Virus record (IMG/VR): IMGVR_UViG_3300042541_001760
Span: 53,689 to 117,688 of that record
Origin: a virus
Reading direction: 5' to 3' (one strand)
Length of the DNA stretch: 64,000 nt
A program made the translations under genes and the position numbers. The notes beneath the pieces were generated by a model. The model made no database searches, had not been told where the DNA came from, and worked only from the letters and a program-made list of their open reading frames with translations. Below, one piece after another: positions 1-53,845 of the stretch (position 1 is the first letter of the stretch; each line of letters starts with the position of its first letter).

Positions 1-395
1 CCTGGTGTTGTTAGTAATCTTAATTTACCCATTAAAACATTACCCTCCCACCATACTTCAGTAATAAGGTGAGAAACTCTGTCTAAATCTATTAAAGAAG
101 ATTCGGGGTGATTTAATTCAGATAAAGATGTTCCTTTTTGAATTAATTTTTTATAATTCTCGGCTTCTCTTTTTAATATTTTTTCGGGGTATGATCTACC
201 ATTTCTGTTTGGCGTGTCGTATTTTTGTAATACGGCGTAGAACTCAAAAGGTTTACTATGATCTAGAAAACCTTTTGATTCTTTTAATATATCTTGGTTA
301 CCGAACTCTCTTGGTGATACATAACCTGCGTCATCCTCAATAAGAATACCTTTCTTACCTGATTCGTTACCTTTTAAAATTCTATATTCGCTCAT
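1..395 (-). CDS. Prohead core protease, T4 gp21-like (partial; runs off the window start)
   Basis: Minus-strand ORF with ATG at 393-395 (MSEYRILKGNESGKKG...) open to position 1. The translation contains RNGRSYPEKILKREAENY...SELNHPESSL...EVWWEGNVLMGKLRL. From memory this matches the conserved core of T4 gp21 (RLYPKRILEKAVKDY...GELNHP...DMWWKGNDVYGRARV). It lies downstream of the portal in transcription order, as in T4. The listed + ORF 128-343 is an antisense artefact. Confidence 0.8.
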   Translation of the reverse strand, partial: MSEYRILKGNESGKKGILIEDDAGYVSPREFGNQDILKESKGFLDHSKPFEFYAVLQKYDTPNRNGRSYPEKILKREAENYKKLIQKGTSLSELNHPESSLIDLDRVSHLITEVWWEGNVLMGKLRLLTTP

Positions 396-950: not shown

Positions 951-1679
951 TTAAAGTTTATCAATTAATGAACGCAATTTAACTAATTCTAACCTATCTG
1001 GAGTTTTGATTTTAATATTGTCTATTGTTTCGTTAATGGTGGTTCTAACCGACTCATCACTCTCATTTACCGTTAATAATGCTAGTTTAACAATAGCGTC
1101 ATCTCTCAACTCGTTAAATTTCCTTTCTAATGTTGACTCATCCATTTTTAATAGACCTATAACCTCTTTTTGTTCCGATTCGGTAAGGTTACTAATATAT
1201 TCCGAATATGACTTATTCGCGATACTCAGCATTGAGTTTATTGGTATGTTAATGTTTGTATTATTTTCACAAGAAGGTTCTTTTTGTAAATTTTCTACAA
1301 CGATTTTTTTGTTTTTAATTTTATTCTCTAAATTTAAAACGTCATTTGATCTACCCAATAAATTATCAATATGTTCGTATTGATTATCTACTTTTATTTT
1401 AGACACCCACCCCATAATGGATTTAATGTCCTTGTCTTGAACTCTATTAATTATATTCTCATAAAGTGTAATGGATTCAAATACGAATTCTTTTGCGATA
1501 CTCTCATTCAAACCCTTATTAGAACTTAGTTCATCATATAGATAAAATAACTTAGAGATATTTTTATTACTAAGAACCAATTTATTGAATGTTTTTATTT
1601 CATTCTTAAATGTGTTATTACTATATGACTCCAATAATAGAGTTTCAATTTTCGTTTTTAATATACCAAATTTTACCAT
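951..1679 (-). CDS. Hypothetical protein, possible prohead core/scaffold component
   Basis: 242-aa ORF immediately downstream of the portal gene. Charged and predicted helical. A TATATAAATAT box sits 14 nt upstream of the start (plus coords 1693-1702). Confidence 0.5.
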   Translation of the reverse strand: MVKFGILKTKIETLLLESYSNNTFKNEIKTFNKLVLSNKNISKLFYLYDELSSNKGLNESIAKEFVFESITLYENIINRVQDKDIKSIMGWVSKIKVDNQYEHIDNLLGRSNDVLNLENKIKNKKIVVENLQKEPSCENNTNINIPINSMLSIANKSYSEYISNLTESEQKEVIGLLKMDESTLERKFNELRDDAIVKLALLTVNESDESVRTTINETIDNIKIKTPDRLELVKLRSLIDKL

Positions 1680-5407: not shown

Positions 5408-6661
5408 TTAGATTCCAAGATCACTCAAAGAAGGACCTTCGTAATCTTCATCCTCATCATTATCTCCGAATTGAGAATCAAAATCTTGTTTCTTTAATTC
5501 CTCAATTATTTCATCAACCATTCTTTGTAATACCTGTTTTCCTTTAGGATTATCAGATAAAATGAATTTAGATAATTTAAAGAATTGTTCCGGTGATAAA
5601 GATGAAAATCTCATAAACAGATAATGCTGAATATGACGTTTGTCCTCCTCAAAAATTTCATCGGGATACGCCGCCAAGAATTTCTCCCAAAAAATAGGAC
5701 CTAATCTTAAATCCCATATCTCTGCGGGTAATGTATCTTCACTCGCAATAACCATTTCGGCTTGACGAGGGTCATCAGGTAATCCGTGAGTTCCGAAAAT
5801 CTCATATACGCCTTTAACCAATTCGTGAATTAACACGGGGAAAGAAGCCCCTCTTGCGATTACTGTTGGTGGGTCTGTTTCCGTATCAACTTCTGATTGA
5901 CCTACTTGACCTTCACCCGATGCTGCCATACTTGACACCATTTGTTCAGGATAAATCCAATATAGATGGTCTAACAATGCTTGTGACATACCATAAATCC
6001 TAACAAGTTCAGGATTAATATTCTCAAGTTCATCAGCAACCAATTCAAACATATAATGTCCTTTTTTAGCCGCTCCACCAATTAATGCGTTAATAAATCT
6101 ACGCTTGGCTTTCTCTTGATTAAATTTCTCAAAAGAATCCATAAAAGCCTCCAACTCATCCTGATGTTCATCAGCTGATGCGAATGCGTCTTTTACTTCT
6201 TCTGCCGTAGGTTCTTCGGATTCACCTCTCATACCTTCAGCCGATGACATACCCCCGTGAATAAGTTTTGCGTCAAACTGCATTGCCCCTTCGGGAATTG
6301 ACATTTCTTTTTTAACTAACTCAACCGCTAAATTCTCAAGATATTCTTTGTTACGACTTTCAATCTGACCAATTTTACCGAACAACTGCATTGCCGATGA
6401 CATAAGTGACATCATAACTTGTTGAGGACCACCTTGTATCTTGGTAGTATCACCCAAATATCTTCTAACGTTATTAACAGAATTTTTAAATCTTTCAGAT
6501 GAAATAACCTCAACGAAATCTCTATCCATTTTAGGTAATCCAGGATGTTCAGCATAAGGAGTCGTTTTAGATGTAATTTTACGCTCAATACTTGGATCCA
6601 TTCTTTCAGGTCCTTCGTAATCTATTGGTGCTTCGCTGATATTTTTTCTATTCTTTGCCAT
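5408..6661 (-). CDS. Hypothetical protein immediately upstream of TerL (too large for a typical small terminase subunit)
   Basis: 417-aa ORF ending 4 nt before TerL. Acidic, with no motif I can name. Confidence 0.55.
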   Translation of the reverse strand: MAKNRKNISEAPIDYEGPERMDPSIERKITSKTTPYAEHPGLPKMDRDFVEVISSERFKNSVNNVRRYLGDTTKIQGGPQQVMMSLMSSAMQLFGKIGQIESRNKEYLENLAVELVKKEMSIPEGAMQFDAKLIHGGMSSAEGMRGESEEPTAEEVKDAFASADEHQDELEAFMDSFEKFNQEKAKRRFINALIGGAAKKGHYMFELVADELENINPELVRIYGMSQALLDHLYWIYPEQMVSSMAASGEGQVGQSEVDTETDPPTVIARGASFPVLIHELVKGVYEIFGTHGLPDDPRQAEMVIASEDTLPAEIWDLRLGPIFWEKFLAAYPDEIFEEDKRHIQHYLFMRFSSLSPEQFFKLSKFILSDNPKGKQVLQRMVDEIIEELKKQDFDSQFGDNDEDEDYEGPSLSDLGI

Positions 6662-12269: not shown

Positions 12270-12659
12270 TTAAGACCAAGAAGCGTCTCCAATATCACCT
12301 TGATACTTTCTAAATTCTCTATCGTGGTCAAATCCAGATTCACCACCACTCTTTTGTGGTCTTCTAGTTTTGATTGTTAAAGGTTTTCCTGTTTTTTCTT
12401 TATATGTGTTAAACATTGCCTTACCCATATCACCACCTAAAGCTCTTCTTTTTGGATGTTTTTCGTGAAATGATTCATAGTCATTAAATTCCTCTGAATC
12501 AAAATCATCATCATTTATATCATCGTCAGAGAATTGGTCGGTATCCATATCAACCCATTTTTCATCACCACCAAATGAACCATATCTTTCACCTTCGCTG
12601 ATTATTCTTTTTACTAACCTAACTAAATCACTTTCTGTTAATCTTACAATTTTTTTCAT
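12270..12659 (-). CDS. Hypothetical protein with leader type b (MKKIVRLTESDLVRLVKRIISEGE)
   Basis: 129 aa. The N-terminal 25 residues are near-identical in pattern to the N-terminus of ORF 51238-51753 (MKVIKLTESDIKKIVKRVISEEE). Confidence 0.5.
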   Translation of the reverse strand: MKKIVRLTESDLVRLVKRIISEGERYGSFGGDEKWVDMDTDQFSDDDINDDDFDSEEFNDYESFHEKHPKRRALGGDMGKAMFNTYKEKTGKPLTIKTRRPQKSGGESGFDHDREFRKYQGDIGDASWS

Positions 12660-13230: not shown

Positions 13231-15273
13231 ATGAATGAGATAATGGACGGTGATGGACCTTCATCAAGAAAAAAAGGCGACAACGATAGTGGTACTCCTG
13301 TACTGGATAACTTCAGTAAAGATTTAAATAAATTGGCTGAGGAAGGTAAATTAGATTCAGTTATTGGTAGAGATAAAGAGATATTAAGAATTGCTCAGAT
13401 ATTATCAAGAAGAAAGAAAAATAATCCTATTATTATTGGAGAACCGGGTTGTGGTAAGACCGCAATTGTTGAGGGATTGGCAATGAAAATCCAACAAGGT
13501 GAATGTCCGAGAAATTTAGCGGATAAGAGAATTGTCCTGTTAGATATGACATCCATTGTTGCGGGAACAAAATACAGAGGTCAGTTTGAGGAAAGAATGA
13601 AAGTGATTATTGAAGAATTACAATCACATCCCAACATTATTATCTTCATAGATGAGATTCACACCATTGTAGGTGCAGGTAATTCATCAGGATCATTGGA
13701 CGCTTCAAACATATTCAAACCAGCATTGGCAAGAGGTGAGATTCAATGTATCGGAGCTACAACACTTGATGAATACCGTAAAAACTTTGAGAAAGACGGA
13801 GCGTTGGAAAGAAGATTCCAAAAAGTGGTGGTTGACCCTTCAACGAAAGAAGAAACTCTACAAATTCTAAAAAACTCAAAAGACAAATACGAGAGTTACC
13901 ATAAAGTTATTTTTAGTGACGAAGTATTAATCACTTGTGTTGATTTGGCGGACAGATATATTACCGATAGAGAGTTTCCCGATAAGGCTTTTGATATTAT
14001 AGATGAAGTTGGGGCAAGAAGTCAGGTGGATATTAAAATGCCTGAAGTTATTGAGAAATTGAAATTGGACGCAATTGATATCAAACAACAAAAGATTGAT
14101 GTTGTAAAGAAACAGAATTACGAACAAGCGGCAGAACTTAGAGATAAGGAGAAAAAAATTCTGAATAAACTTCACGTAGAAAAAATGAAGTTTGAAGAAG
14201 AAATGAATATCAATAAGAAAGAAGTTGAGATTGAATTGGTTTATGAAGTTGTATCCAATATGACAAAAATTCCTGTTGGAAAACTTAACATTGACGATTC
14301 AAAATCATTGGTTGATTTGGAGGTTAATATCGGATCGAAAGTTATTGGTCAATCTGAAGCGGTTTCAAAAATATCAAAAGCAATTAGAAGAAATAGATTA
14401 GGTATTAAAGACCCAAATAGACCCATAGGATCGTTTATCTTCTTAGGATCCACAGGTGTGGGTAAAACACACTTAGCCAAGCAATTGGCGAAAGAGATAT
14501 TCGGTAGTGAAGATTCTTTAATTAGAGTTGATATGTCCGAATATCAAGAAAAACACTCAATCTCTCGTTTAATCGGATCTCCTCCGGGATATGTTGGTTA
14601 TGATGAAGGTGGTCAATTAACTGAACAAGTTAAAAACAAACCATACTCCGTTATTTTATTTGATGAAATTGAAAAGGCAAATAAAGACATATTCTCAACT
14701 TTACTACAGGTATTGGATGATGGTCACCTTACAGATGGATTGGGAAGAAAAATCAATTTCAAAAATTGTCTTATCATTATGACATCAAATATTGGTGTTA
14801 AAAAATTACAAGATTTTGGGGCTGGTGTTGGATTCCAAACTAAGTCCTATGTTGAAGAAGAACAAAAACGAGACATCCTTAAAAAGGAACTTCAAAAATT
14901 CTTCGCACCTGAATTCCTAAACAGAATTGATGATGTGATAATCTTTAACACCCTAAAACAAGAACAAATTAACGAAATCGTTAAGATTGAACTTAATAAG
15001 TTATCATCAAGATTGACTAAAATCAAATACCAATTCAAATTTGAATCTTCGGTAACTGATATGATATCAAAAGTTGGTTTTGATGAAATGTATGGGGCTA
15101 GACCTTTAAAGAGGGCTATCCAAGATAAAATTGAGGATTATATTTCCGAGGAAGTTCTTAGAGGTGAACTTAAAACCGAAACACCTTATGTGGTTACGGC
15201 AGAGAATGACGTTATTATTATAACGGAAGAGAAAAAAGGAAAGAAGGGTAAAACAAAAAAGGAGGTTGAATAA
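13231..15273 (+). CDS. ClpC/ClpB-like double AAA+ chaperone ATPase lacking the N-domain
   Basis: 680 aa. D1 Walker A GEPGCGKTAIVEGLA and Walker B IIFIDEIHTIVGAG. Short UVR-like middle motif KQNYEQAAELRDKEKKI. D2 FLGSTGVGKTHLAKQLA...RVDMSEYQEKHSISRLIGSPPGYVGYDEGGQLTE...LFDEIEKA...LQVLDDGHLTDGLGR. Confidence 0.9.
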   Translation: MNEIMDGDGPSSRKKGDNDSGTPVLDNFSKDLNKLAEEGKLDSVIGRDKEILRIAQILSRRKKNNPIIIGEPGCGKTAIVEGLAMKIQQGECPRNLADKRIVLLDMTSIVAGTKYRGQFEERMKVIIEELQSHPNIIIFIDEIHTIVGAGNSSGSLDASNIFKPALARGEIQCIGATTLDEYRKNFEKDGALERRFQKVVVDPSTKEETLQILKNSKDKYESYHKVIFSDEVLITCVDLADRYITDREFPDKAFDIIDEVGARSQVDIKMPEVIEKLKLDAIDIKQQKIDVVKKQNYEQAAELRDKEKKILNKLHVEKMKFEEEMNINKKEVEIELVYEVVSNMTKIPVGKLNIDDSKSLVDLEVNIGSKVIGQSEAVSKISKAIRRNRLGIKDPNRPIGSFIFLGSTGVGKTHLAKQLAKEIFGSEDSLIRVDMSEYQEKHSISRLIGSPPGYVGYDEGGQLTEQVKNKPYSVILFDEIEKANKDIFSTLLQVLDDGHLTDGLGRKINFKNCLIIMTSNIGVKKLQDFGAGVGFQTKSYVEEEQKRDILKKELQKFFAPEFLNRIDDVIIFNTLKQEQINEIVKIELNKLSSRLTKIKYQFKFESSVTDMISKVGFDEMYGARPLKRAIQDKIEDYISEEVLRGELKTETPYVVTAENDVIIITEEKKGKKGKTKKEVE

Positions 15274-15287
15274 CCTCCTTTTTTTAA
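15255..15287. terminator. Bidirectional rho-independent terminator between convergent genes
   Basis: GGAGGTT-GAAT-AACCTCC hairpin flanked by an A-run upstream and TTTTTTT downstream. Confidence 0.55.
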
Positions 15288-16117
15288 AATGGACTATAAA
15301 TTTTATTAGGTTTCTCCTCTTTAAATTGGTGTTTGGTGTAACCCAATGATTCTATCATTTTTTTACCAACTTTGATACCATTGTAGACATCCTCAACCAC
15401 CACATATTCATTTGCGGTGTGGTAATCGTAGTACCCAATGGAGATATTGATACAAGAAAAATCAAAAGATTCTTTAAGAGCGTAAACATCGGTATAAGGG
15501 TGTGAGAAATATTTTAGTTTATCAGGAAAACTTTCAGTTAGAACTTTATCACATTCTTTAAAAAAGTCAGTCCGTCTGTCAAATAATGTTGTTCCCCAAC
15601 ATCTTTCAGTAACCATCCAATTTTCGGGGGCGTCGAACTGAATTGCGTAACCAACATTTGTAAAGAATGATTTGTCGGCTTTACGAGACCCGTGACATCC
15701 TGTTTCTTCAGATACAAAGAACGCCGCCTTTAAGTTGGGTAACTCTTTTAGTAATTCTAAACAAGCATAGACACCACACTTGTCATCACCTCCAATACCT
15801 GTAGGGTTTCCTTCGTTATTATACGCTTTTAGGGATAACTTAATTTCACCTTGAGCGTTTTCAAGTTGTTCTTCAACGACATTGATTGAGTCCATATTAT
15901 GAACCGTATCAGTGTGTGATACAACACAAGGGAACATAAACCCATTAGGTAAATCACCGGTTTGTTTGGTGGCATAAACATTAAGATGTTCATCCACCGT
16001 ATGGTCAATGTTGTTTTCCGTTAACCAATCAATAAGAAATTGAACCATCTGTTCTTCCTTATAAGTTTTACTTGGTACTGACAATACGTCTTTTAGTAAT
16101 TGATAATTTCTTTCCAT
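15284..16117 (-). CDS. M20/M28/M42-type metallopeptidase
   Basis: 277 aa. Metal-ligand motifs HTDTV, GGDDKCG and the catalytic Glu-Glu SEETGCHGS. Confidence 0.55.
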   Translation of the reverse strand: MERNYQLLKDVLSVPSKTYKEEQMVQFLIDWLTENNIDHTVDEHLNVYATKQTGDLPNGFMFPCVVSHTDTVHNMDSINVVEEQLENAQGEIKLSLKAYNNEGNPTGIGGDDKCGVYACLELLKELPNLKAAFFVSEETGCHGSRKADKSFFTNVGYAIQFDAPENWMVTERCWGTTLFDRRTDFFKECDKVLTESFPDKLKYFSHPYTDVYALKESFDFSCINISIGYYDYHTANEYVVVEDVYNGIKVGKKMIESLGYTKHQFKEEKPNKIYSPF

Positions 16118-16153: not shown

Positions 16154-16600
16154 TTAATCTTTTGATTTGATTTTAAATTTTATATTTTCCACATCATTTT
16201 TACTTGAAACCCAATGAACGTCAGATGGAATTTTTTCTAAGAGATTTGAATAATTTTTTAGTAAGGTATTAAAGTGTTTTTTATTAAACCATTTAGACCT
16301 TTTAATAATTATTTTAACTACATTTTTATCCTTATCTAATAATATTGCCGATCCGGGCGCCATTATACTAACCTCATTCTTGAAAGTATCAAAGTCAAAA
16401 TGTTTTCTCATGCCGTCAAAATCGTCATCATCATCTTGCGACATTAAATTTTTACCCATGTCTTTTGTATAATCGTCACCTTGATAAAACATTGAGTCCA
16501 TAGGAGATTCTAAAATAATGGTATTATAACCTCTTTTTTTATGCATTTCTAATATTCTACCTCTCTCAGATGAATTAATATTGTTGAATAAATTTTTCAT
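16154..16600 (-). CDS. Hypothetical protein
   Basis: 148-aa ORF. A TATAAATAT box sits at 16614-16622, 14 nt upstream of its start. Confidence 0.5.
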   Translation of the reverse strand: MKNLFNNINSSERGRILEMHKKRGYNTIILESPMDSMFYQGDDYTKDMGKNLMSQDDDDDFDGMRKHFDFDTFKNEVSIMAPGSAILLDKDKNVVKIIIKRSKWFNKKHFNTLLKNYSNLLEKIPSDVHWVSSKNDVENIKFKIKSKD

Positions 16601-18468: not shown

Positions 18469-18503
18469 TCTAAACCTCATCAGAAATGGTGGGGTTTTTT
18501 TAT

Positions 18504-18845
18504 TTAATAAAGATTAGTTATCCAGTTATATCTTGACTCAATCTTAGGTAAGTATCTATCTAATAAAAAATTATATATTTCATCAGACGGAAATTCGTCT
18601 TGACCCCAATTTGATAAATCTCCGTGATACTCGTCAATAATACCATTTATTATACGTCTTTTAAAATCATCAAATTCCATCCTATTACCATCTCTAAGTT
18701 CTCTTAAAAAAATATCAGTAACGTAATTTAAATTATCTAGTATGTCACTATCTAATGAACTAATATCAACTCTTCTACGTAGAAAAGAAGATTCATTAAT
18801 CCCCATCACTTCCTGTATCCTCTGTATATTTTCTTGTAGATTCAT
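18504..18845 (-). CDS. Leader-family protein (MNLQENIQRIQEVMG N-terminus)
   Basis: 113 aa. Conserved N-terminal 15-mer shared with 20289, 20605, 21462 and 22235. A TATAAATAT box abuts the start codon. Confidence 0.6.
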   Translation of the reverse strand: MNLQENIQRIQEVMGINESSFLRRRVDISSLDSDILDNLNYVTDIFLRELRDGNRMEFDDFKRRIINGIIDEYHGDLSNWGQDEFPSDEIYNFLLDRYLPKIESRYNWITNLY

Positions 18846-18860
18846 AACATATAAATATTA

Positions 18861-19580
18861 TCACACATTGATAATTTTCCATTTCCCTTTGAAGTCCTCA
18901 ACCAAACAAGTTGAATTCTCGCAAAAGTCGCCTGAGTTCATATAATCATCGGTTAATTTTGGGTAATGGATATGTCCACATACGGTAACATCATACCCCT
19001 TTTCTTTTGTTAGTGATTTTGCGTTATCTTCAAAATCAGATACAAAATTAATTACACCTTTAACGCTTTGTTTTACCACATTAGCCAATGAATGGTATGG
19101 TAAATTAAACCATCTCCTTATGTAGTTATATAGGGTGTTGAATCTAATAACAAAATCATACGACCACCCACCGATAACCGCCAACCATCTGGCTTCCATA
19201 ATAACAAAATCCAATACATCCCCGTGATAACAATAATAACTACGACCATCGGCTCCGATATGGACATATTTTCTTACAATCTCTATATTATTTAATGTGA
19301 ATGGTATGAACTCCTTTAGAAAGTCATCGTGATTTCCTCTAATATAAATTACCTTAGTTCCCTTCTCACTTCTTTTCATAAACTTACGAAATATCTTGGA
19401 GCAGTTGTTATTCCATTTTCCCCCACTTTTTAACGCCCATCCATCAATAATATCACCATTTAAAATTAATGTTTCAGATTCGTTCTCTTCCAAAAACTTT
19501 ATAATTTTATTGGTTTGTGATTGTCTTGAACCAAGATGTAGATCACTCATTATTATCGTTCTCCACTTTTTCATTTCCAA
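18861..19580 (-). CDS. Calcineurin-like metallophosphoesterase, LpxH-like (UDP-2,3-diacylglucosamine diphosphatase family)
   Basis: 239 aa. Motifs SDLHLG, LNGDIIDGW, IRGNHDDFL and YHGDVLDF parallel the LpxH motifs DLHL / GDLFEAWIGDD / HGNRDFL / HGDTLCTDD. Confidence 0.65.
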   Translation of the reverse strand: MEMKKWRTIIMSDLHLGSRQSQTNKIIKFLEENESETLILNGDIIDGWALKSGGKWNNNCSKIFRKFMKRSEKGTKVIYIRGNHDDFLKEFIPFTLNNIEIVRKYVHIGADGRSYYCYHGDVLDFVIMEARWLAVIGGWSYDFVIRFNTLYNYIRRWFNLPYHSLANVVKQSVKGVINFVSDFEDNAKSLTKEKGYDVTVCGHIHYPKLTDDYMNSGDFCENSTCLVEDFKGKWKIINV

Positions 19581-20317
19581 TATCCTTTATCGTTTTTGAA
19601 GTATGATTTGTTATTGTGGTTGAAGAATGAGTTAATCATTAATTTTATCATATACATAACACCTTTATTTTTAAATCTTCTTGGTGGTGTATATACTATA
19701 TTATTTATTCTACCGAACTTATTAGGTTTAATTTGTTTTGATAAAATATAATCCTCGGCGACTTTTACGTCCTCATCAAACCCCCCTATTAACTTAAATG
19801 TTTCGGATCTAATCAACATAAAACCACCAAGACAAAATGGTGTAATCCATTTTGAAAGTGATTGTATTACATCAAATGACTTGTATATGTAATTGTATTC
19901 ACCATTGTCAGTCCTGAACTTCGTGGTTACCAAATCTAAGTTATTTTTATGTATTTTTTTTATTGATTGTGTTAGTATTTTTGCATCCAATAGAAACACA
20001 TCAGAATCCATAAATAATACATAGGGGGTTTTTACTATTTTGAATCCTTTATTTCTGGCTATCCCCGGTAATCCACCATCAATTATTATTAAATCAAATA
20101 GGTCTTTATTATGTGTTAATCTATTAATTAATGATTCATAGGTAACCGAATCGTTTGATGAATCACAAACTATAACATTTACTCCGGTTACGTTCCTCTG
20201 ATAATTTAATAAATCTAATGTTTTTAAAATAACATCTTTTTCATTTTTACAAGGAATTACTATTGTGATTAAATTTTTTAAATCCATATTAATCAATTCC
20301 CAATTTTTCCTTAACAT
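19571..20317 (-). CDS. Glycosyltransferase family 2
   Basis: 248 aa. ITIVIPCKNE...VIVCDSSNDS...IIIDGGLPGIARNKG...LFMDSDVFL (GT-A fold with DXD). Overlaps the downstream gene by 10 nt. Confidence 0.75.
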   Translation of the reverse strand: MLRKNWELINMDLKNLITIVIPCKNEKDVILKTLDLLNYQRNVTGVNVIVCDSSNDSVTYESLINRLTHNKDLFDLIIIDGGLPGIARNKGFKIVKTPYVLFMDSDVFLLDAKILTQSIKKIHKNNLDLVTTKFRTDNGEYNYIYKSFDVIQSLSKWITPFCLGGFMLIRSETFKLIGGFDEDVKVAEDYILSKQIKPNKFGRINNIVYTPPRRFKNKGVMYMIKLMINSFFNHNNKSYFKNDKGYWK

Positions 20318-20594
20318 ATTTAATCATAGGTTTTTCATACATTAAATATGAATCCCAATATTGTTGTTCCGTTCCTGTATCATTAATATCGCTAAAATTT
20401 TTTGTGGCTATGAATTGTCTTACCGTATCATAAATTGCGGTGCTCAAACTTTCACCCTCCTCTATTTGGTCTTTAATATCTTTAATCAGGTCATCTAGTT
20501 CGTCAATATCAAATCTCCTCTTGAACCACGGACTAAGATTTTCATTAAGACCCATCATTTCCTGTATCCTTTGTATGTTTTCTTGTAGATTCAT
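20289..20594 (-). CDS. Leader-family protein (MNLQENIQRIQEMMG)
   Basis: 101 aa. Conserved leader followed by an acidic body. Confidence 0.55.
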   Translation of the reverse strand: MNLQENIQRIQEMMGLNENLSPWFKRRFDIDELDDLIKDIKDQIEEGESLSTAIYDTVRQFIATKNFSDINDTGTEQQYWDSYLMYEKPMIKYVKEKLGID

Positions 20595-20604
20595 ACGTTA
20601 TAAC

Positions 20605-21459
20605 CTAAGCAAAATTATTTAATGATGAAGAATCATTATTTTTATTCATAGCAACAGTATTCATTAAATCAATAAAATTATTCATCTTTTCTTGGTTAGT
20701 TCCTTTTAAAGATTTAAAAATGTCTTGATAATGTACGTTTTTTAATATAGTTGGATTTTTAATCATTTTATTATAATCATCTTTAGTAAATTGTTTTTTC
20801 CCCGCATCGTATATACCTTGTTGATTTAGTAAATACCTAATTGGTTGGATTCTATTAATAAATTCACTTGGGGTTGATTCATAATCAAAAACCTTATCAC
20901 CGATTTTATAATTGGGGTATTTTTTATCACCTCCTTGGGTATACTTATAAATTTTTTCTTTTGTTGATTGTGGTATTCTTGAACCTCCGTCATCAACCAG
21001 GTGACCAAATTCATGAGCCGGTATAGTTTCATATCCGGTAACTGGATTCCAATTTTTTGGATTATACTCTTTTTCAAAATACACATGACCTTTCTTATCA
21101 TAACCTTTTGCATCAGGAGTCCATTTATTTTTTTTCCATTTTTTATCTAAATAATCATAATACTCACCCTCATAATTTTTAGGTATCATTAACCCTGATA
21201 CATATCCCGGTTCTTTTGAGATAGCTCTTACGAAGTGTGTTTGGTCTTTAACATTATCCAAATTTTTTAATCTCTCTTTTCTTTCTTTTTCTATAAAATC
21301 TTGAGGTTTATTAGGAAATTCTTTTTTTAATCTTTCTAAGTACATTGTCGAATTTAAATATGATTTCCACCACTGTAGTTGTTTGTCGAATTCACTGGTG
21401 GTTTGCTCATTTAAGCCCATTACTTCTTTAATTCTTTGTATGTTTTCTTGTAGGTTCAT
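20605..21459 (-). CDS. Leader-family protein with HExxH zinc-metallopeptidase motif
   Basis: 284 aa. MNLQENIQRIKEVMG leader. C-terminal AHEFGHLVDDGG (HExxH). Confidence 0.6.
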   Translation of the reverse strand: MNLQENIQRIKEVMGLNEQTTSEFDKQLQWWKSYLNSTMYLERLKKEFPNKPQDFIEKERKERLKNLDNVKDQTHFVRAISKEPGYVSGLMIPKNYEGEYYDYLDKKWKKNKWTPDAKGYDKKGHVYFEKEYNPKNWNPVTGYETIPAHEFGHLVDDGGSRIPQSTKEKIYKYTQGGDKKYPNYKIGDKVFDYESTPSEFINRIQPIRYLLNQQGIYDAGKKQFTKDDYNKMIKNPTILKNVHYQDIFKSLKGTNQEKMNNFIDLMNTVAMNKNNDSSSLNNFA

Positions 21460-21461
21460 AA

Positions 21462-22238
21462 CTATTTTTTAGGAGTTGGGATTTTAGTGTCTTTTATAAA
21501 TTTTCCATACGCATTTTTATATGACTTTTGCGTTTCATCATTTACGTTTTTGGTGTATTGCCAATTCCAATATAAATCTTTGTTTGGTTTGAATCCATAA
21601 AATTTATGAACTTCCTTTTGGGTTGCAGTTACATTCTCACCATTCCAATTCTGACCGACACAAATAAAACCTGTCTCAATATCTTTAATAATGTTTGATT
21701 CACCCAATGTTGTATGTCTATTTTCTAACCAATTCAATCTCTCAATTAAGTTTTGGTAATACATATTGGTCTGACCCCATCTTATAGAACTGAAAAATAA
21801 AACAACATCCGATTCAAATAACTCTTTGGATATCTTCCATAATTCGTCTGAGGGTTCATTTATATTAACCCAACATCTATGATCACCTGACGGGTTTTTA
21901 TCTTTGTCTTTAAGTTTGGCTTTTAATAATCCACAAGAGTTTCCGTCTTTTCTTGATACATTACCTTCACAGGGTAAAATTTTAAGTTCTGGTACATCTA
22001 TCAATACTGACTTATCACCTAATTGGTCTTTTAAATACATCGCAATCATTTTTGATTTTGGTATATCAATATTCTTATCATCCCAATTATATCTGTTTGA
22101 GCAACTTAATAATAAAACTTTTTTTTTCTTTTTTAGAATATCTAATGTTTTCTCAATTGATTTCCATGCGTCCGATTGAACCATTTCTTCCGAAATCATC
22201 ATCTCTCTTATTCTATCTATATTTTCTTGTAGGTTCAT
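21462..22238 (-). CDS. Leader-family protein (MNLQENIDRIREMM), possibly flavodoxin-like body
   Basis: 258 aa. Leader present. The body (VLLLSCSNRYNWDD...DVVLFFSSIRWGQTN) is of unknown fold. Confidence 0.55.
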   Translation of the reverse strand: MNLQENIDRIREMMISEEMVQSDAWKSIEKTLDILKKKKKVLLLSCSNRYNWDDKNIDIPKSKMIAMYLKDQLGDKSVLIDVPELKILPCEGNVSRKDGNSCGLLKAKLKDKDKNPSGDHRCWVNINEPSDELWKISKELFESDVVLFFSSIRWGQTNMYYQNLIERLNWLENRHTTLGESNIIKDIETGFICVGQNWNGENVTATQKEVHKFYGFKPNKDLYWNWQYTKNVNDETQKSYKNAYGKFIKDTKIPTPKK

Positions 22239-22756
22239 TTCTTTGTCTTTTTTACGCAGTTAGGGTATCTTTTACCAAACATTGTCTTCATTCCTTTTTG
22301 GGTGTATCCTGCCCAACATTTCTCTGTGAGTTCCCCTTCTTTCATTTCAGACATTTCATCAATTTCCTCCGAATAATCCTCATTCTTTAAACAATGATAT
22401 TCGTCACCAACATTTTGGAATAATTTACCTTTAAATTTGTCCGCATATTTCTCATTTAGATATTCTATTAGTAAATTATTAAATTCATCCAAATTTAATA
22501 ATACCGAATCTGAGTAAGCCCTAAGTTTCCTATAAGGACCGCACTCTGTTACCCATAAAACACCCCAATCATTTCTATGGAATACGTCTTTATCTTTTTT
22601 ATTATACCATTTACCATATACGTAATTCTTATCACCATATTCAACTTTTAAATCTAATTCGTTAAATACTCTATCAAAGCGACTAAACAGAAAACTTCTA
22701 ATTTTTTCTTCTTTGGTTTCCCTCAATACTCTTCTTATGGTTTCTTGTAGATTCAT
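22235..22756 (-). CDS. Leader-family protein (start moved to internal Met giving MNLQETIRRVLRE)
   Basis: The track ORF starts at 22780 (MFMLYLLHM...). The conserved leader and the nucleotide repeat begin at the Met at 22756. Overlaps the upstream gene by 4 nt. Confidence 0.5.
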   Translation of the reverse strand: MNLQETIRRVLRETKEEKIRSFLFSRFDRVFNELDLKVEYGDKNYVYGKWYNKKDKDVFHRNDWGVLWVTECGPYRKLRAYSDSVLLNLDEFNNLLIEYLNEKYADKFKGKLFQNVGDEYHCLKNEDYSEEIDEMSEMKEGELTEKCWAGYTQKGMKTMFGKRYPNCVKKTKK

Positions 22757-22779
22757 ATGTAATAAATATAACATAAACA

Positions 22780-22840
22780 AAAAAAGGTCGTCACAGGGAC
22801 AACCTTTAAGGGTATTGGTTTTGGTGAATTGGATTTTTTT
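22780..22840. repeat. Conserved intergenic stem-loop element, copy A
   Basis: AAAAAAGGTCGTCACAGGGACAACCTTTAAGGGTATTGGTTTTGGTGAATTGGATTTTTTT. Near-identical in layout to copy B at 24330-24390, with compensatory changes in the stem. Confidence 0.5.
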
Positions 22841-22850
22841 GTTTTCTATT

Positions 22851-22862
22851 AGTATTTATATG
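22851..22862 (+). promoter_or_regulatory. Putative -7 promoter box (AGTATTTATATG)
   Basis: 15 nt upstream of ATG 22877. Confidence 0.35.
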
Positions 22863-22876
22863 TTATATTTAATTTT

Positions 22877-24331
22877 ATGAAAATATTAGTATCGGAAAGT
22901 CAATACAAAAGATTAGTTGAGAGTTTATTAGATGAATCCATTTTAATTATAGGTGATAGTCATAGCGTAGATGCAGGATTCACTTACTCAAGTTTATTAA
23001 AGAAAAAATTTTCGGATGTAAAAATATCAGCATCGGTTGGCCAAGGAACATCTTGGATGAAATCAGAATTAGCTAGAGAGTTAACCAAAAAACATTACGA
23101 TAAAGTTATAATTTGGGGTGGGAACAACGATATTGGTTCAACCTCCTCTATATCTGGAGCAATATCAAACATACAACAAATGGTTAATATGGTTAACTCA
23201 CAAGACGGTCAATCATATGTAATCATTGGTTTTGACCAAGAAGTTTTTACCAAAAAAGTAAAAAATAAAATGAGAGAAAGATATATAGATTTGCAAAAAC
23301 AGTTATCTAGTGAGATAAGTAATGCCGTAATAATTCCTGCCTTTGATATTGATAACTCTTACACATCAGATAATGTACACGGAAATAAGAGTGCTCACGA
23401 AAAAGTTTTTAGAACCGTTACGGAGTATCTACAAAAAACAACACAAAAAGAAAAACAAAAAGATGAAAGTAAAAATTCTGAAACGTTAATGTCAAGATTA
23501 GAAGATTATTTGGATTCTGGTTTAGAATTAGTTGCAAGAAAACGAGGTTCAATGGTTTATGAAAAAGAAGTTGAGGATATACAAACCGCTCTCCAATTTT
23601 TAGGGTTTTCTTTACCTAAGTGGGGTGTAGATGGAAAATTTGGGCCAGAAACAAAAAAAGCAACTGAAAACTTCCAAGAAGAAAATGATTTGGAAGTGAC
23701 AGGAATTTTTTCAATCAAAGATTTTGAAAAACTTATTGATGTTTTGGAATCAAAGGGTGTTACTGATGAAGATTTCATGAATGTTCAGAAAAACAAAACA
23801 GAAGAGTTATCATCAGATTTTGAATCGACGGATTTTGAAACAATTGAAAATTCTGGAATTCAAGTTAGTAAATACCCAAATGATATCGAAAATAGATTAC
23901 AGGATATTTTAGGTAAAGAAAAATTCAATATATTTGTTTCCAAGTGTCGAGGAATTGGGTTAGACCCTTTGATTGCAATTAGACAACTTTATACAGAATC
24001 TGTCGGTTTTAGTCCTGACGTTTTGACTTGTAAAAGAAAATCACCTGCGGGAGCCATGGGAATTGCTCAATTTATGCCGGGTACTTGGCCAAGTTATGGT
24101 AAAGGTAGTCCATGCAATGTCGATGACGCATTGGACGCTTATATTAGGTTTATGGATTATTTACTAAAAAGATATGAAGGTCGAGTAGATCTGGCAGTTG
24201 CGTCATATAATAGTGGTCCAAACTTAAATATATATAAGAAAACATATAACTCAAATACACCTTTCGCATCACTTAAAGGTAAAATACCAGGAGAAACATA
24301 TAAATACGCATCCACAATTCTACAAGCATAA
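22877..24331 (+). CDS. Three-domain lysin: SGNH/GDSL esterase, PG-binding domain, lytic transglycosylase (SLT)
   Basis: 484 aa. SGNH blocks IIGDSHS (I), IIWGGNNDIG (III) and DNVHGN (V). PG_binding_1-like IQTALQFLGFSLPKWGVDGKFGPETKKATENFQEEN. SLT motifs LYTESVGF (catalytic Glu), AMGIAQFMPGTW and VASYNSGP. The N-terminus MKILVSESQYKRLVESLLDES is leader type b. Confidence 0.85.
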   Translation: MKILVSESQYKRLVESLLDESILIIGDSHSVDAGFTYSSLLKKKFSDVKISASVGQGTSWMKSELARELTKKHYDKVIIWGGNNDIGSTSSISGAISNIQQMVNMVNSQDGQSYVIIGFDQEVFTKKVKNKMRERYIDLQKQLSSEISNAVIIPAFDIDNSYTSDNVHGNKSAHEKVFRTVTEYLQKTTQKEKQKDESKNSETLMSRLEDYLDSGLELVARKRGSMVYEKEVEDIQTALQFLGFSLPKWGVDGKFGPETKKATENFQEENDLEVTGIFSIKDFEKLIDVLESKGVTDEDFMNVQKNKTEELSSDFESTDFETIENSGIQVSKYPNDIENRLQDILGKEKFNIFVSKCRGIGLDPLIAIRQLYTESVGFSPDVLTCKRKSPAGAMGIAQFMPGTWPSYGKGSPCNVDDALDAYIRFMDYLLKRYEGRVDLAVASYNSGPNLNIYKKTYNSNTPFASLKGKIPGETYKYASTILQA

Positions 24332-24390
24332 AAAAAGGGTTATCACCGAAGTAACAACCCTTTAAGGCTATTGGTTTTGGTGGATGGGTT
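24330..24390. repeat. Conserved intergenic stem-loop element, copy B (probable bidirectional terminator)
   Basis: AAAAAAGGGTTATCACCGAAGTAACAACCCTTTAAGGCTATTGGTTTTGGTGGATGGGTTT. The stem AAGGGTT/AACCCTT replaces AAAGGT/ACCTTT of copy A. Lies directly after the lysin stop codon. Confidence 0.5.
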
Positions 24391-24702
24391 TCCAATAAAC
24401 CCAAGTGTAATGTTAGTGACACATCACTCTCGATACGTTCGACCACGAGACGGATATTTTAATCGGTTAACTAAAACCAATGATTCTGTCCTTTTTGTTA
24501 ACTCTAAAGGACAACGTGAGTAACATATCATCTCACGTATTAAAGAGTAACGATTTTTTTGTTTTACGGGTATGGGGTGTAAAACTATTTAAACCATCGA
24601 AAAAAATAAAAGACCCCACAGAATAAATTTATTTAATCTTTTAATTTAACCTCCTAAAGAGACGGCTTTATTCTATATTCCGTCAAAAAAACGAGTCACT
24701 TG

Positions 24703-24777
24703 TTGCGGGAGCAGGAATCGAACCTGCGTGGTTGAGCTTATGAGACTCAGCTGGATCCGTCTCCAGTCTACCCCGCC
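24703..24777 (-). tRNA. tRNA-Met (CAT), initiator-like acceptor stem
   Basis: Reverse complement GGCGGGG-TA...CTCATAA...GCAGG-TTCGATT-CCTGC-TCCCGCA-A. The acceptor closely resembles E. coli tRNA-fMet (CGCGGGG/CCCCGCAA), including a 1:72 mismatch. Anticodon loop CTCATAA. The D-arm is irregular, so the call needs tRNAscan. Confidence 0.55.
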
Positions 24778-25794
24778 TTGGCTTACGTTGAGATTACACG
24801 TTTTAGTAGAAATCTTTGATGGGATTATTGTTTCCCCACGTATCCACCATCTTTTGAATGGTAATTTCCAGTGATGGTCTTTTAGGTGTACCACTCCTTG
24901 AATTTCTAACTACTCTCCTACTAATCCGTTCTCTTCAAACTTGCGGTCTGATTAGGTCTTCGACAACCTAGAGATTTTTCATAAGAATACATTCTGACTT
25001 GCGGTCTTCGTGTGCAATGGACATCCCATTACTATGTAATCACCTTTCGTTAGAAACTGATAGACACTTTTGCTTTCTTTTTAAATTTTTAGTAAAAAAA
25101 TCGAGTTATGTGTTGTGGATGTATCAAAGTAGTGGTCTACCGTAAGCTTCGTCGTCTTTTGAACAACAAAATACTAAACTACTTCGTGAAGTGTCCCCAC
25201 CTCCATACTTTAAGATAACTTCGTAACAAGATTTTGGTAAATCTTTGATAAGGACAGTAGCGACACCACTCGTTCTCTATCTTACCTTTCGGTTTTAAGT
25301 TATCTTTCATATTGGAACACGCAATTGTATCGTTGGAGCGATAGTTCTCGCAATATTCCTATGGGTTATTCTTATTGGTGTTCCCACCTCAACTTGACAA
25401 TCCACATTGCCTTGTCACCCAACCACTTTCTCTAAAGCGTCGCCCTCAATACTGAAGGTCAGGTGATATCCCACTTGTGTACTCAAGTTCAGTTACCTGA
25501 ACCGCAAACTCACTTACACTTGTGAATCCACTTTATCCTACTTTCGTAGTTTATTTAACGACCATACACGGCCGACTATCTTTATGTTTTACCGAAATAA
25601 AACAATGGATAATATTTTTTATGTCAAAGAACAATAATCATTTTTACTAATTAGAACTATGCTACTGACGGCTTAATTAGGGGTTCTCACCGCTCTAAAA
25701 TGTCAGGTTCACACCAGACCTCCTTTTCTAATTGTTTGACAAAGGTAGTAAATAAATTTCATTTGTCAAGCAATTTTTTAATTTTTTTTCGTCA

Positions 25795-25845
25795 CCCCCA
25801 CCCTATTAAACCTAAACTTTATAACTTAAATACTGATAGGGTGGG
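25795..25845. other. Perfect 11-bp stem-loop (CCCCACCCTAT ... ATAGGGTGGGG) with 29-nt loop
   Basis: Seen directly in the sequence at the edge of the ORF-free region. Preceded by a T-run. Confidence 0.5.
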
Positions 25846-26087
25846 GTAACTCTCAAATCTTTTACAAATGTAGGAAGAATTTTCGTTACTTCCAAATTTA
25901 TTTTATGATTTTTTATGATATTTTTAAAGAACTGATTTGAATCAAATGTCTGTCTCAAATCCTCTACAAATGTAGTAATAAGTTTTTGAATTACCAAACC
26001 ATAACCGGAAATTATTTTTAGAATTGACTTTATGGTTTATTACATCTATATTCTGGTACGTTAATAAACCATTAAAACTAATTAAAA

Positions 26088-26270: not shown

Positions 26271-26358
26271 CCATATACTATCTAAGAGATTAGCCCTGTT
26301 CTTTTTAAGGATGGGGTTTTTTATTTACATAATGTAGTATTTATTTAAAACACGAATT

Positions 26359-27431: not shown

Positions 27432-27489
27432 AGCTATTTACTTTTACAAATAAATATCTACAATTACTCGTTTTTTTTAGTTTTGTAAG

Positions 27490-29057: not shown

Positions 29058-29070
29058 ATTTTTTATTTAG

Positions 29071-31532: not shown

Positions 31533-31573
31533 TTTTAAACACCCCCAACATTAAGTCAGGGGTGTTGATTTTT

Positions 31574-48997: not shown

Positions 48998-49627
48998 ATG
49001 AATTTTAACATTTTAATTAGCGAAAGTCAAAGAAAAAAGCTTATTATTGAAAGTGTTGGTGATAATTTAGGTAAAGACACCAAAAAATTATTTGACCTAA
49101 CCAAGAACGTAATAAATCAATCTTCAGAACAACTGGGGATGAATTTACAATTTATGTTAACTTGGGGAGCGTCAATTGGGGGTCTAATGGGGCCTTTAAG
49201 TGATTACATTGAGGGTAGGTCCCCTTCCATTACTGATATGGATAAAAGTTTGATTTTAGTTGGTGTCATATCTGTTTTATATTATGACAACAAAGAAGCA
49301 ATTGAAAAAATTCTAAGAAAGATTAAAGAAAATGGGTTATCTGATGATTTTTTGGATACTCTAAGAAAAGGTAAGGAAATTAAAAAGACGTTCTTGGATT
49401 TCTTATCGTCATTGAATATATCGGCTCATAAGATGACAAACATTATGAGTTATACTTTCATAATACCACTATTACCGATGTTATATACCATTTCACAATC
49501 GGGAGATGTATCACCTGAAGATATTGAAAGTATTGTAAGGAGAATTGCCGGATTCGGTATGTTAACCATTTCAGGTATTACCTTGAAGGAGTTAATCAGT
49601 AAGGTTATTCGGAGGTTTAGTGATTAA
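48998..49627 (+). CDS. Hypothetical membrane-associated protein with leader type b (MNFNILISESQRKKLIIESVGD)
   Basis: 209 aa. Its N-terminus parallels MKILVSESQYKRLVESLLDES of the lysin at 22877. Confidence 0.5.
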   Translation: MNFNILISESQRKKLIIESVGDNLGKDTKKLFDLTKNVINQSSEQLGMNLQFMLTWGASIGGLMGPLSDYIEGRSPSITDMDKSLILVGVISVLYYDNKEAIEKILRKIKENGLSDDFLDTLRKGKEIKKTFLDFLSSLNISAHKMTNIMSYTFIIPLLPMLYTISQSGDVSPEDIESIVRRIAGFGMLTISGITLKELISKVIRRFSD

Positions 49628-51237: not shown

Positions 51238-51753
51238 TTATTTTCCTTTGATTAGCATTAAACAACGCTTCAAATATTCCTTCGTTCTTGGTGATGGAGT
51301 GTAATCATCATTCTTAGTTTGTAATGATAATACTTTCTCAATGTCTTTTACTAGTTCATCCCCGTGTTCATTCTCTTTATACAACTCAATAATCTTCTCC
51401 ATCGCTTGATTACACTCACCTGAAGTTTCATCAAAATAATTTCTTGTTTTGAATTTGTTCAAATGGTGAAGTAGGTCGTAAGATAAATGTTCACCCTTAT
51501 CTTTGATGTCATTATTCAATCTAATAGTTTTAAGAAGGTCTAGTGTATCAACAATACCATTTATACCACCAGATCTCTTGGTAATTGATGGTGCGTATGT
51601 CTTGAAACTATCAGAGTCACCAACAATCTCATCCAAAGACGCAGTATTTGTTGTTAAACATCTTTGTTTTTTCTCCTCAACTTGTTCTTCTTCGGAGATT
51701 ACTCTCTTAACTATTTTTTTAATATCGCTTTCAGTTAATTTTATAACTTTCAT
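51238..51753 (-). CDS. Hypothetical protein with leader type b (MKVIKLTESDIKKIVKRVISEEE)
   Basis: 171 aa. Its N-terminus parallels the N-terminus of 12270-12659. Confidence 0.5.
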   Translation of the reverse strand: MKVIKLTESDIKKIVKRVISEEEQVEEKKQRCLTTNTASLDEIVGDSDSFKTYAPSITKRSGGINGIVDTLDLLKTIRLNNDIKDKGEHLSYDLLHHLNKFKTRNYFDETSGECNQAMEKIIELYKENEHGDELVKDIEKVLSLQTKNDDYTPSPRTKEYLKRCLMLIKGK

Positions 51754-53473: not shown

Positions 53474-53845
53474 ATGAATTTAGATAATCTAATACGAAGA
53501 ATTCTTAAGGAAGAATTTGAAAGTGATTACTTACCGAACTTAACCGGTGTTGTAATTGAAGAGGATGAGTATGGTTCTGTGGAGTTAATTATGATTAATG
53601 AAGCCAAATACCATAATAAGACGGTAACCTTAAATAAACCTTTCTACACCCCTGGCGGACCTAAAAAGCGTTCAGTTTATGTTAAAAACGCAAAGGGTAA
53701 TGTGGTTAAAGTTAATTTTGGGGATCCGAATATGAGAATAAAAAAATCAAGTCCGTCACATCGTAAATCATTCAGGGCTAGACATAATTGTCAAAATCCC
53801 GGACCAAAGACTTCTGCCAAATACTGGAGCTGCAGGGCTTGGTAA
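53474..53845 (+). CDS. Hypothetical protein with leader-like N-terminus (MNLDNLIRRILKEEF)
   Basis: 123 aa. Basic, Cys-containing C-terminus. Confidence 0.5.
   Translation: MNLDNLIRRILKEEFESDYLPNLTGVVIEEDEYGSVELIMINEAKYHNKTVTLNKPFYTPGGPKKRSVYVKNAKGNVVKVNFGDPNMRIKKSSPSHRKSFRARHNCQNPGPKTSAKYWSCRAW

Follow-up and report, generated by a model that had tools for sequence, protein, structure and literature searches.

What is the role of a short peptide that begins a whole series of otherwise unrelated viral proteins? The question is raised by a 64,000 nucleotide (nt) stretch of the IMG/VR virus record IMGVR_UViG_3300042541_001760 (positions 53,689 to 117,688 of that record), hereafter called the window. 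Within positions 18504-22756 of the window, five minus-strand genes start with the peptide MNLQE(N/T)I.R(I/V), here called the leader. We propose, with about even confidence in being right, that MNLQENI.RI.. and a number of sister tags are capsid-targeting propeptides of the kind known from phage T4, greatly expanded in a T4-related jumbo phage of Bacteroidota. Capsid targeting and removal by a prohead protease had been put forward in an initial annotation of the window. It is the best-supported reading, resting on an S77 protease, LINE/A-like junctions, a detached helix, leader swaps and effector-like cargo, while packaging and cleavage are parts of it that we infer.

The leader genes were found in the table of open reading frames (ORFs) and by a six-frame motif scan, with the pattern placed at the N-terminus. 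A degenerate 21-nt back-translation, ATGAAYYTNCARGARAAYATH, has four matches in the window versus none in 100 dinucleotide shuffles. The array is organized as follows (aa, amino acids; HMM, hidden Markov model; pI, isoelectric point; a slash after a leader marks the leader/cargo junction):

18504..18845, minus strand, leader-A gene of 113 aa, leader MNLQENIQRIQEVMGINE/S at about 18792-18845, leader HMM E 2e-11
18861-19580, minus strand, leaderless calcineurin-like metallophosphoesterase, Pfam Metallophos 1.6e-14
19571-20317, minus strand, leaderless GT2 glycosyltransferase, Pfam Glycos_transf_2 1.1e-15
20289..20594, minus strand, leader-A gene of 101 aa, leader MNLQENIQRIQEMMGLNE/N, acidic body, pI 4.5
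20605..21459, minus strand, leader-A gene of 284 aa, leader MNLQENIQRIKEVMGLNE/Q, body a zincin (HEFGH) metallopeptidase
21462..22238, minus strand, leader-A gene of 258 aa, leader MNLQENIDRIREMMISE/E, flavodoxin-like α/β body with a Cys-rich insert
22235..22756, minus strand, leader variant gene of 173 aa from the ATG at 22756, leader MNLQETIRRVLRE/T

The initial annotation described five consecutive genes. The five leader genes are real, but they are not strictly consecutive, the first being separated from the second by a pair of genes without leaders. The dispersed variants that it reported at 40161, 42319 and 53474 are real as well and N-terminal, the motifs of the two minus-strand genes lying at the high-coordinate ends, 42350 and 43767.

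The leader is a separable unit. In DNA alignments, similarity between the leader genes begins exactly at the ATG and fades near codon 19, and the DNA upstream of the start codons is not conserved. With the first 20 residues removed, no pair of leader-gene bodies gave a BLASTP match below E = 0.04, which bears out the earlier statement that the bodies behind the leader are unrelated. Pfam and PHROGs searches of the five leader proteins found no family that spans the leader. A recent tandem duplication, or a paralogous family, is ruled out because the bodies are unrelated; the similarity does not extend into them and the folds differ.

Selection acts on the leader peptide and not on its DNA. We compared codon usage in 114 distinct leaders, taken from the IMG/VR matches listed, with that of the gene bodies. 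The synonymous sites at N2, E5, N6, R9, I10, G15 and E18 are about as diverse as background codon usage, with some codon biases (AAC, ATA, CTA). A purely nucleotide-level element is ruled out by these varying synonymous sites. Position 8 is hypervariable. Hydrophobic residues occupy positions 3, 7, 10 and 14 (L3-I7-I10-M14), a spacing of i, i+4, i+7, i+11, and the leader is therefore read as an amphipathic helix.

The zincin protein was modelled with AlphaFold2 (39 sequences) at a mean predicted local distance difference test score (pLDDT) of 87.5. The body forms a single confident fold at about residues 21-272, with pLDDT above 90, whereas the N-terminus consists of a helix at residues 3-13 and a stretch, residues 11-20, with pLDDT below 50. 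The flavodoxin-like protein shows the same N-terminal behaviour, in a model with mean pLDDT 69 and low-confidence inserts. The leader is predicted to be a helix detached from the fold and followed by a disordered linker, an arrangement that would leave the hydrophobic-x-E junction behind it exposed. Being detached in the models and present on at least 200 body families, the leader is neither a piece of one family's fold nor an element for its oligomerisation. A Sec, Tat or lipoprotein signal peptide was also rejected: the leader has E, R, K, Q or N every 3-4 residues, no hydrophobic core of 10 or more residues and no twin-arginine motif. Real signal peptides in the window, for example that of the protein starting at 35054, are unlike it.

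The leader is strictly N-terminal and virus-specific. We scanned IMG/VR for ATG plus MNLQENI.RI, allowing every synonymous codon, and found the leader on at least 118 stretches, in contigs of up to 321 kb and often with several matches each. Among the matches listed there are 157 ORFs with at least 58 unrelated body clusters. An exhaustive HMMER search with a leader profile (1.84e9 representative proteins, E ≤ 1e-3) placed the type A leader at the head of at least 600 protein clusters (50% identity), and in about 140 of the best 150 clusters the match begins at residue 1. The GTDB species genomes (185,579 cellular genomes, 596 Gb) contain two matches to the pattern; one is a 23-codon ORF that arose by chance, the other a contig of 3.3 kb that was binned into a metagenome-assembled genome. 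A tblastn search of INPHARED, using the 20-aa leader and two leader proteins, gave no match through the leader; INPHARED matches of the 22756 gene are confined to its C-terminal CW..GY motif (cyanophages). A literal string search of 8 million papers did not find the leader peptide strings.

The leader is one of several types that are used interchangeably. N-termini were clustered without any motif, using 2200 unique ORFs from 203 loci. A single giant similarity cluster of 479 proteins in 204 body families spans type A, type B (MKxIITESQ.., RLTESDL..RIVKRVI.E), type D (MKxLIRxILREE) and a looser type C. Homologues of the zincin protein carry at least four tags, with the same body joined at ..E-Q in each case:

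zincin tag, MNLQENI.RIKEVMGLNE/Q
zincin tag, MKIIITESQYELLNEELGKSIINE/Q (MKIIITESQY..SIINE/Q)
zincin tag, MKTLILTESQLKKIVKKIMLE/Q
zincin tag, MIRLKSLLQNLFE/Q

Likewise, the flavodoxin-like cargo is found behind at least three leader types (MNLQENIQRIREMMISE/E, MSLREEINRIREIMILE/E and MIKLTDIVNKIMLAE/E), and in two proteins, P0110 and P0120, near-identical bodies follow leaders that differ.

Every leader/cargo junction examined, of zincin and flavodoxin-like cargo, has hydrophobic-x-E. The last residues of the five array leaders are INE, LNE, LNE, ISE and LRE. Many leaders finish with ..MG[VIL]INE, others with LNE, ISE or LRE, and these ends resemble LINE/A, the predicted cleavage site of the capsid protein of the clade. 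An [LI]xE with its Glu at residues 13-24 is present in 69% of the 204 leader-bearing families versus 16% of 585 others, falling to background level beyond residue 25; given that the leaders are mutually related, this enrichment is descriptive and not independent evidence. The initial annotation had pointed to the LQE and IQE triplets inside the helix, as fitting the gp21 cleavage consensus of T4. That evidence is weak, and the junction after Gly is a better candidate for the cleavage site.

Counting all leader types in the N-terminal-similarity cluster, 15 of the 72 ORFs in the window are tagged. The leader family described earlier is thus real but only a fraction of what is present, several leader types together tagging about a fifth of the window ORFs. 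In protease-centred head-module loci, the tagged share is 4.8%. Tagged genes of the window outside the array include:

12270..12659, minus strand, type B leader gene of 129 aa, leader MKKIVRLTESDLVRLVKRIISE/G, acidic body
16154..16600, minus strand, type C N-terminal motif ..SSERGRILEMHKKRGY, grouped by single linkage and of less certain membership
22877..24331, plus strand and divergent from the array, type B leader gene, leader MKILVSESQYKRLVESLLDE/S, with GDSL esterase, PG_binding_1 and SLT lytic transglycosylase domains
40161-42350, minus strand, leader-A variant gene of 729 aa, ..YLNEELNRIREIMGV at aa 8-22
42319-43767, minus strand, leader-A variant gene of 482 aa, MEDQENFNRIKFLIGY at the N-terminus, peptidoglycan (PG)-binding domain at the C-terminus
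48998..49627, plus strand, type B-like leader gene of 209 aa, leader MNFNILISESQRKKLIIE/S
51238..51753, minus strand, type B leader gene of 171 aa, leader MKVIKLTESDIKKIVKRVISE/E
53474..53845, plus strand, dispersed leader variant gene of 123 aa, leader MNLDNLIRRILKEE/F, body matching phrog_7595

The type C motif also occurs at 46024-47202 and 47524-48060. The protein encoded at 22877-24331 matches phrog_342, 'internal virion protein with endolysin domain' (2e-13).

The window begins with a T4-like head module, all on the minus strand:

1..395, minus strand, cut by the window edge, gp21-type prohead serine protease, N-terminal 131 aa, Pfam Peptidase_S77
951..1679, minus strand, 242-aa gene placed like T4 gp67/gp68, between portal and protease, and putatively of corresponding role
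1706-3568, minus strand, gp20-type portal of 620 aa, no leader
3632-5404, minus strand, gp17-type large terminase (TerL) of 590 aa, no leader
5408..6661, minus strand, head-module gene upstream of TerL, starting MAKNRKNISE/APIDY in the window

Clear gp21 and gp20 homologues had been claimed for the window, and both are real, but gp21 is cut by the window edge (395..1, 131 aa). PHROGs and Pfam did not find gp21 among the full-length ORFs of the window; the gene is the ORF at the edge. The full protein, a Peptidase_S77 of 243 aa, is encoded on related contigs, for example at 10490-11221 of L119. It is 33% identical to T4 gp21 (E 4e-22) and keeps the ELNHP and SSRG motifs. It is a candidate processing enzyme for the leaders. 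The S77 protease is found on at least 598 IMG/VR stretches, and the clade is therefore abundant.

Contigs that share genes with the window encode the S77 protease, DUF4494, an extremely acidic 490-aa scaffold-like protein, a 613-aa Gp23-family capsid protein and Portal_T4. The gp22-like scaffold was recognised by position and acidic composition alone. The capsid protein matches T4 gp23 structures (E 3e-26), and its ASFLINE/A(S/T)SE aligns with the T4 gp23 cleavage stretch GSFLTE/AEIGG. The predicted maturation site, (F/H)LINE/A, after which the mature protein would start at A61, is invariant in 43 capsid proteins of the clade. Tags are found within the head module too. The 951-1679 protein begins with an amphipathic helix, MVKFGILKTKIETLLLE/S, the 5408-6661 gene has a full leader in relatives, MGNKDLERLIRKVIKE/APVDY, and in one protease-centred locus (L131) two type B genes follow immediately after the protease. 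Portal, terminase, capsid protein, protease, RNA ligase and the amidase-type endolysin candidate (57127-57861) are without tags.

The source is most likely an uncultured giant T4-like phage of freshwater Bacteroidota. The GC content is about 32%. A megablast search of INPHARED with the leader array gave no DNA match, and the closest cultured relative of the terminase is a Flavobacterium phage, at 27% identity. The window zincin protein is present, identical, on a 261-kb contig, and the phage is therefore a jumbo phage. The host is probably a member of the Bacteroidota, as indicated by genes with Por_Secre_tail domains of the type IX secretion system (T9SS), typical signal peptides and the Flavobacterium-phage terminase. 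Signal peptides of Bacteroidota type (..SFVGFSQ, ..GISFSQ) are found on window genes 35054-37630, 45501-46013 and 52461-53450, and the Por_Secre_tail domain on a relative (L120, 10678-11542). This suggests that the phage makes proteins that are secreted via the host type IX system. The window also has seven tRNA genes on the minus strand at 24702-33662, two for Met and one each for Tyr, Cys, Thr, Arg and Glu.

The initial annotation knew of no leader-defined family that had been described, and so overlooked T4's own internal proteins, which are defined by a capsid targeting sequence (CTS) and are a described precedent. In brief, the internal proteins of T4, as well as Alt, have N-terminal propeptides of 10-19 residues that are aimed at the scaffolding core and removed by gp21 after Glu. 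The CTS is sufficient to package green fluorescent protein, nucleases and other foreign proteins, and the internal proteins of T-even phages are highly diverse, with the CTS alone in common (PMC9026906, PMC5694885, PMC3012670). The resemblance to the CTS of IPI, IPII, IPIII and Alt lies in a short N-terminal propeptide on unrelated proteins (10-19 aa in T4, about 17-22 aa here), a tag that ends in L/I-x-E, here a predicted cleavage site, and cargo genes that vary between relatives. A head-maturation set is here too (S77 protease, gp22-like acidic scaffold, gp23 capsid protein and gp20 portal), and the cargo includes the ADP-ribosyltransferase (ART) class, as T4 Alt. The differences are that there are several interchangeable leader types here versus one in T4, and hundreds of cargo families across the clade, on about a fifth of the window ORFs, versus a handful in T4. 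Many cargoes here are acidic or enzymes, whereas those of T4 are small, basic, DNA-associated proteins. The phage is uncultured, probably has a Bacteroidota host and is known here from sequence alone. In T4, processing is blocked by a change of the Glu to Asp. The T4 CTS is MKTYQEFIAE. By inspection, MNLQENIQRI has only the pattern φ-Q-E-x-I in common with it. We regard the leader as analogous to the T4 CTS and not as a homologue, because there is no sequence similarity and no T4-like phage in INPHARED is matched through the leader.

Other known systems are further away. The jumbo myoviruses φKZ, 201φ2-1 and SPN3US have a gp21-related protease, which cleaves after Glu, and many head-internal proteins. 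The SPN3US paralogues gp53 and gp54 have an identical 15-residue N-terminus, which was likened to a CTS by the authors (PMC5694885). Unlike the leaders, the propeptides of these phages are mostly 80-160 residues long with the motif A/S/G-x-E, and their conserved N-termini are limited to paralogues and not found across unrelated folds. They also have no clear gp22-type scaffold, whereas the present clade has a gp22-like acidic protein beside gp23. Polyvalent proteins, described by Iyer et al. 2017, are giant polypeptides with 2-15 effector domains each, predicted to be delivered with the DNA for early action, and their repertoire overlaps with the present one (zincin, ART-PolyVal, lysozyme/transglycosylase and GNAT; also T4 Alt) (PMC5512222). 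Here, the effectors are encoded one by one in small genes (array cargo 101-284 aa), each with a short tag of its own. Because they are not multi-domain polypeptides, they do not fit the definition of polyvalent proteins. Polymorphic toxins and integron-like cassettes also join a constant module to exchangeable cargo, with breakpoints at the constant module. In our case, the constant part is a translated viral peptide of 18 residues, neither a long trafficking domain nor an attC site.

The cargo was surveyed by a Pfam census of 60 and then 130 representatives, which found 38 families, 36 of them displayed. Most representatives have no Pfam family, and the annotated cargo is mostly cell-wall hydrolases. 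Cell-wall domains are PG_binding_1 (four times), VanY (twice), LysM, Tae4, GH19, SLT, Phage_lysozyme, OmpA and GDSL. Other cargo domains are ART-PolyVal, GNAT acetyltransferases, SKI/AAA_18/AAA_33 kinases, Acb1, sigma-70 (r2 and r4), DUF2237 and GP88. There is no tail, replication or nucleotide-metabolism family among the 36 displayed. From its domains, the set looks like effectors for entry and host takeover. Enzymes acting on the cell wall and enzymes acting in the cytoplasm carry one and the same tag, and this is most simply explained by the particle as common destination. The argument is not decisive, because endolysins are also made in the cytoplasm.

One cargo is very abundant and conserved in metagenomes. 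For the flavodoxin-like protein (21462-22238), with the JGI name 'multimeric flavodoxin WrbA', clustering at 90% identity gives 3344 clusters, and identity to the query is 76% or more in each of the top 120. Its conserved Cys-rich insert (CEGN..C, HRCW) is poorly modelled by AlphaFold2.

Cargo genes vary between close relatives, and the cassette breakpoints lie in the leaders. Compared with the related locus L019, the window shows homology at 19725-20595 and 21416-22835, and only the zincin body (20596-21415) is swapped for a different cargo of 160 aa. On the right, homology resumes 44 nt inside the leader of the 21459 gene; on the left, it breaks off where the following leader gene has its start codon. 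Whether relatives carry the same leader on different cargo had been raised by the initial annotation, and in L019 they do. This locus is also without 22836-24358, and thus without the GDSL/PG-binding/SLT gene 22877-24331 (1.5 kb). In a second locus, L013, the 22756-type gene is directly followed by the 18845-type gene. Window positions 18848-22197 (3.4 kb, five genes) are therefore a block bounded by two leaders.

Taken as capsid-targeting propeptides, the tags would work as follows. The tag would form an amphipathic helix of about 13 residues with the hydrophobic face L3-I7-I10-M14, followed by Gly and a short flexible linker with hydrophobic-x-Glu at its end. During prohead assembly, the helix would dock the new protein onto the scaffolding core. 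The S77 prohead protease would then cut behind the Glu, at a site of the type predicted for the capsid protein (LINE/A), and the freed cargo would remain in the head and be ejected with the DNA. Docking to the core, cleavage, presence in virions and ejection of the tagged proteins are all steps that we infer. As a side effect, leader-coding DNA also serves as homology for swaps of cargo cassettes between related phages, because every cassette begins with the same ~55 nt.

Several points weigh against this mechanism. The commonness of the tags and the ordinary-looking enzymes among the cargo are our main reason for doubt. If the tagged share of the window held genome-wide, dozens of protein species would be packaged per virion, far above T4. 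The ordinary-looking cytoplasmic cargo includes the highly conserved flavodoxin-like protein, DUF2237 and a pterin-4a-carbinolamine dehydratase-like sequence. With a pI of about 4.5, several bodies are strongly acidic, whereas the internal proteins of T4 are described as basic (PMC9026906). The clade is uncultured, and the leader is found on no INPHARED phage. Inspection revealed no significant similarity of the leader to the T4 CTS. It should be noted that amphipathic helices rich in Glu commonly contain [LI]xE, whatever their nature, and that cutting of the leader by the S77 protease rests on a predicted specificity.

Among the other explanations, the one that survives best is that the helix is a docking or handling tag for a hub other than the capsid, such as a ClpC/ClpB-like unfoldase, a replication or assembly factory or a chaperone, and that it controls timing, folding, turnover or localisation in the cytoplasm. 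A proteostasis cluster is indeed located 2-6 kb from the leader array:

12706-13077, Hsp20-like protein
13231-15273, plus strand, ClpC/ClpB-like double AAA+ protein without a Clp N-domain, phrog_4871 E 1e-239
15284-16117, M42/M20-family aminopeptidase

The presence of the tag on about 21% of the window ORFs, apparently cytoplasmic enzymes included, agrees with such a role, and the leader is modelled as detached and exposed, as expected of a recognition peptide. A tag of this kind would leave unexplained why the junctions of all leader types have the hydrophobic-x-E that matches the predicted capsid site, why cell-wall hydrolases are in excess among the cargo and why genes of the head module are tagged. 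We also know of no Clp degron or adaptor motif that resembles a 13-residue amphipathic helix. On balance, we consider this explanation unlikely.

The swaps described above could also be taken as the primary function. In that case, ~55 nt of 5' DNA would be kept for homologous exchange between co-infecting phages, in an integron-like or T4 PeSL-like manner, and the peptide would merely be tolerated. The cassette differences to L019 and L013 are bounded by leaders, and the codon choices AAC, ATA and CTA are off background, consistent with the spread of one DNA segment. However, the amino acids are held while synonymous sites vary, and the motif sits strictly at the first residue. With completely different DNA, types A, B and D have the same design of helix and hydrophobic-x-E and are swapped on the same cargo. 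These features point to a function of the peptide; recombination is better seen as a consequence of the tags, and as their origin it is quite improbable.

It is very improbable that the leader is an expression element, that is, an A-rich unstructured stretch of the first ~18 codons that enhances translation initiation in Bacteroidota hosts not using Shine-Dalgarno sequences and that was copied onto many genes. The host is probably a Bacteroidota and the leader DNA is A-rich, but there is no conservation upstream, the leader is missing from highly expressed genes such as that of the capsid protein, conservation is at the amino-acid level with synonymous sites free, and neither the hydrophobic periodicity nor the Gly-linker-Glu junction is needed for translation. 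An export signal, by which cell-wall enzymes would reach the periplasm in an unconventional way, is scarcely credible: many cargo domains act on peptidoglycan, including those of window genes 22877-24331 and 42319-43767, but the leader is charged every 3-4 positions with no hydrophobic core and no twin-arginine motif, the same tag is on cytoplasm-acting ARTs, a sigma factor, Acb1, kinases and GNATs, and the canonical amidase-type endolysin candidate (57127-57861) is untagged.

Returning to capsid-targeting propeptides, we tentatively put forward a wider proposal, in which we place clearly less than even confidence. The clade would pre-load its capsid with a large modular arsenal by means of a few interchangeable tags of ~18 residues, and the tag DNA would double as recombination sites for cassette exchange, making up an integron-like, capsid-addressed effector system. 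Each genome could contribute dozens of protein species to the arsenal, and the clade as a whole many hundreds of cargo families. Among them would be cell-wall hydrolases, ADP-ribosyltransferases, an Acb1-like, nuclease-like enzyme that counters the cyclic-oligonucleotide-based anti-phage signalling system (anti-CBASS) and even a sigma factor. If the tags are addresses for the capsid, the CTS principle of T4 would be a general and greatly scalable strategy and no curiosity of T-even phages, and a translated tag would also be able to drive cassette shuffling. The rule of an N-terminal amphipathic helix, Gly and hydrophobic-x-Glu would then predict injected proteins straight from metagenomes, flag hundreds of unknown families as candidate effectors of entry, takeover or anti-defence, and supply new portable packaging tags for phage engineering. 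If the tags do otherwise, about a fifth of the window genes carry a virus-specific N-terminal signal that is still to be explained, which is at least as interesting.

Some additional features of the leader genes and their surroundings were observed. The body of the 18504-18845 protein is acidic, with pI 4.5, and has an FLRRR motif at its start. In many small acidic cargo proteins, including 18504-18845, 20289-20594 and the products of many loci, a second motif, (S/N)xF(L/F)(R/K)RR(V/L/F)..(L)D, is found right after the leader (for example SSFLRRRVDISSLD and LSPWFKRRFDIDELD). One subfamily thus seems to have a longer N-terminal module.

The 22235-22756 gene encodes a C-terminal CWAGY..NCVKK motif that is common to cyanomyophage proteins. 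This motif of ~30 residues, CWAGYTQKGMKTMFGKRYPNCVKK, is encoded at window positions 22235-22330 and is also found in L119 (19363-19854). Hypothetical or 'virion' proteins in 117 records of T4-like cyanophages have C-termini with 77-88% identity to it, and the motif is a second portable terminal module, common to distant T4-like phages.

The leader array is flanked by GC-rich hairpins with T-runs at 22783-22807 (minus strand), 18472-18497 (plus strand) and 24334-24363 (minus strand), one of them directly upstream of the 22756 start. The window has nine terminator-like sites versus 2.6 expected from shuffles, while a sigma-70 promoter scan gave a count not above the shuffle expectation.

In L119 (3826-9179), the large terminase and portal are called in pieces (337 + 393 + 253 aa and 481 + 80 aa) versus intact in the window (1706-5404). 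The terminase and portal genes of some relatives may be interrupted by introns, inteins or homing elements. Finally, 17 proteins of 62-1007 aa, encoded in protease-centred loci such as L131, L141-L143 and L163 and belonging to nine unrelated body clusters, have a further conserved module at the N-terminus, MGLxRRKKSGNxxGGSxLIVPGQP... This module may be a virion attachment domain.

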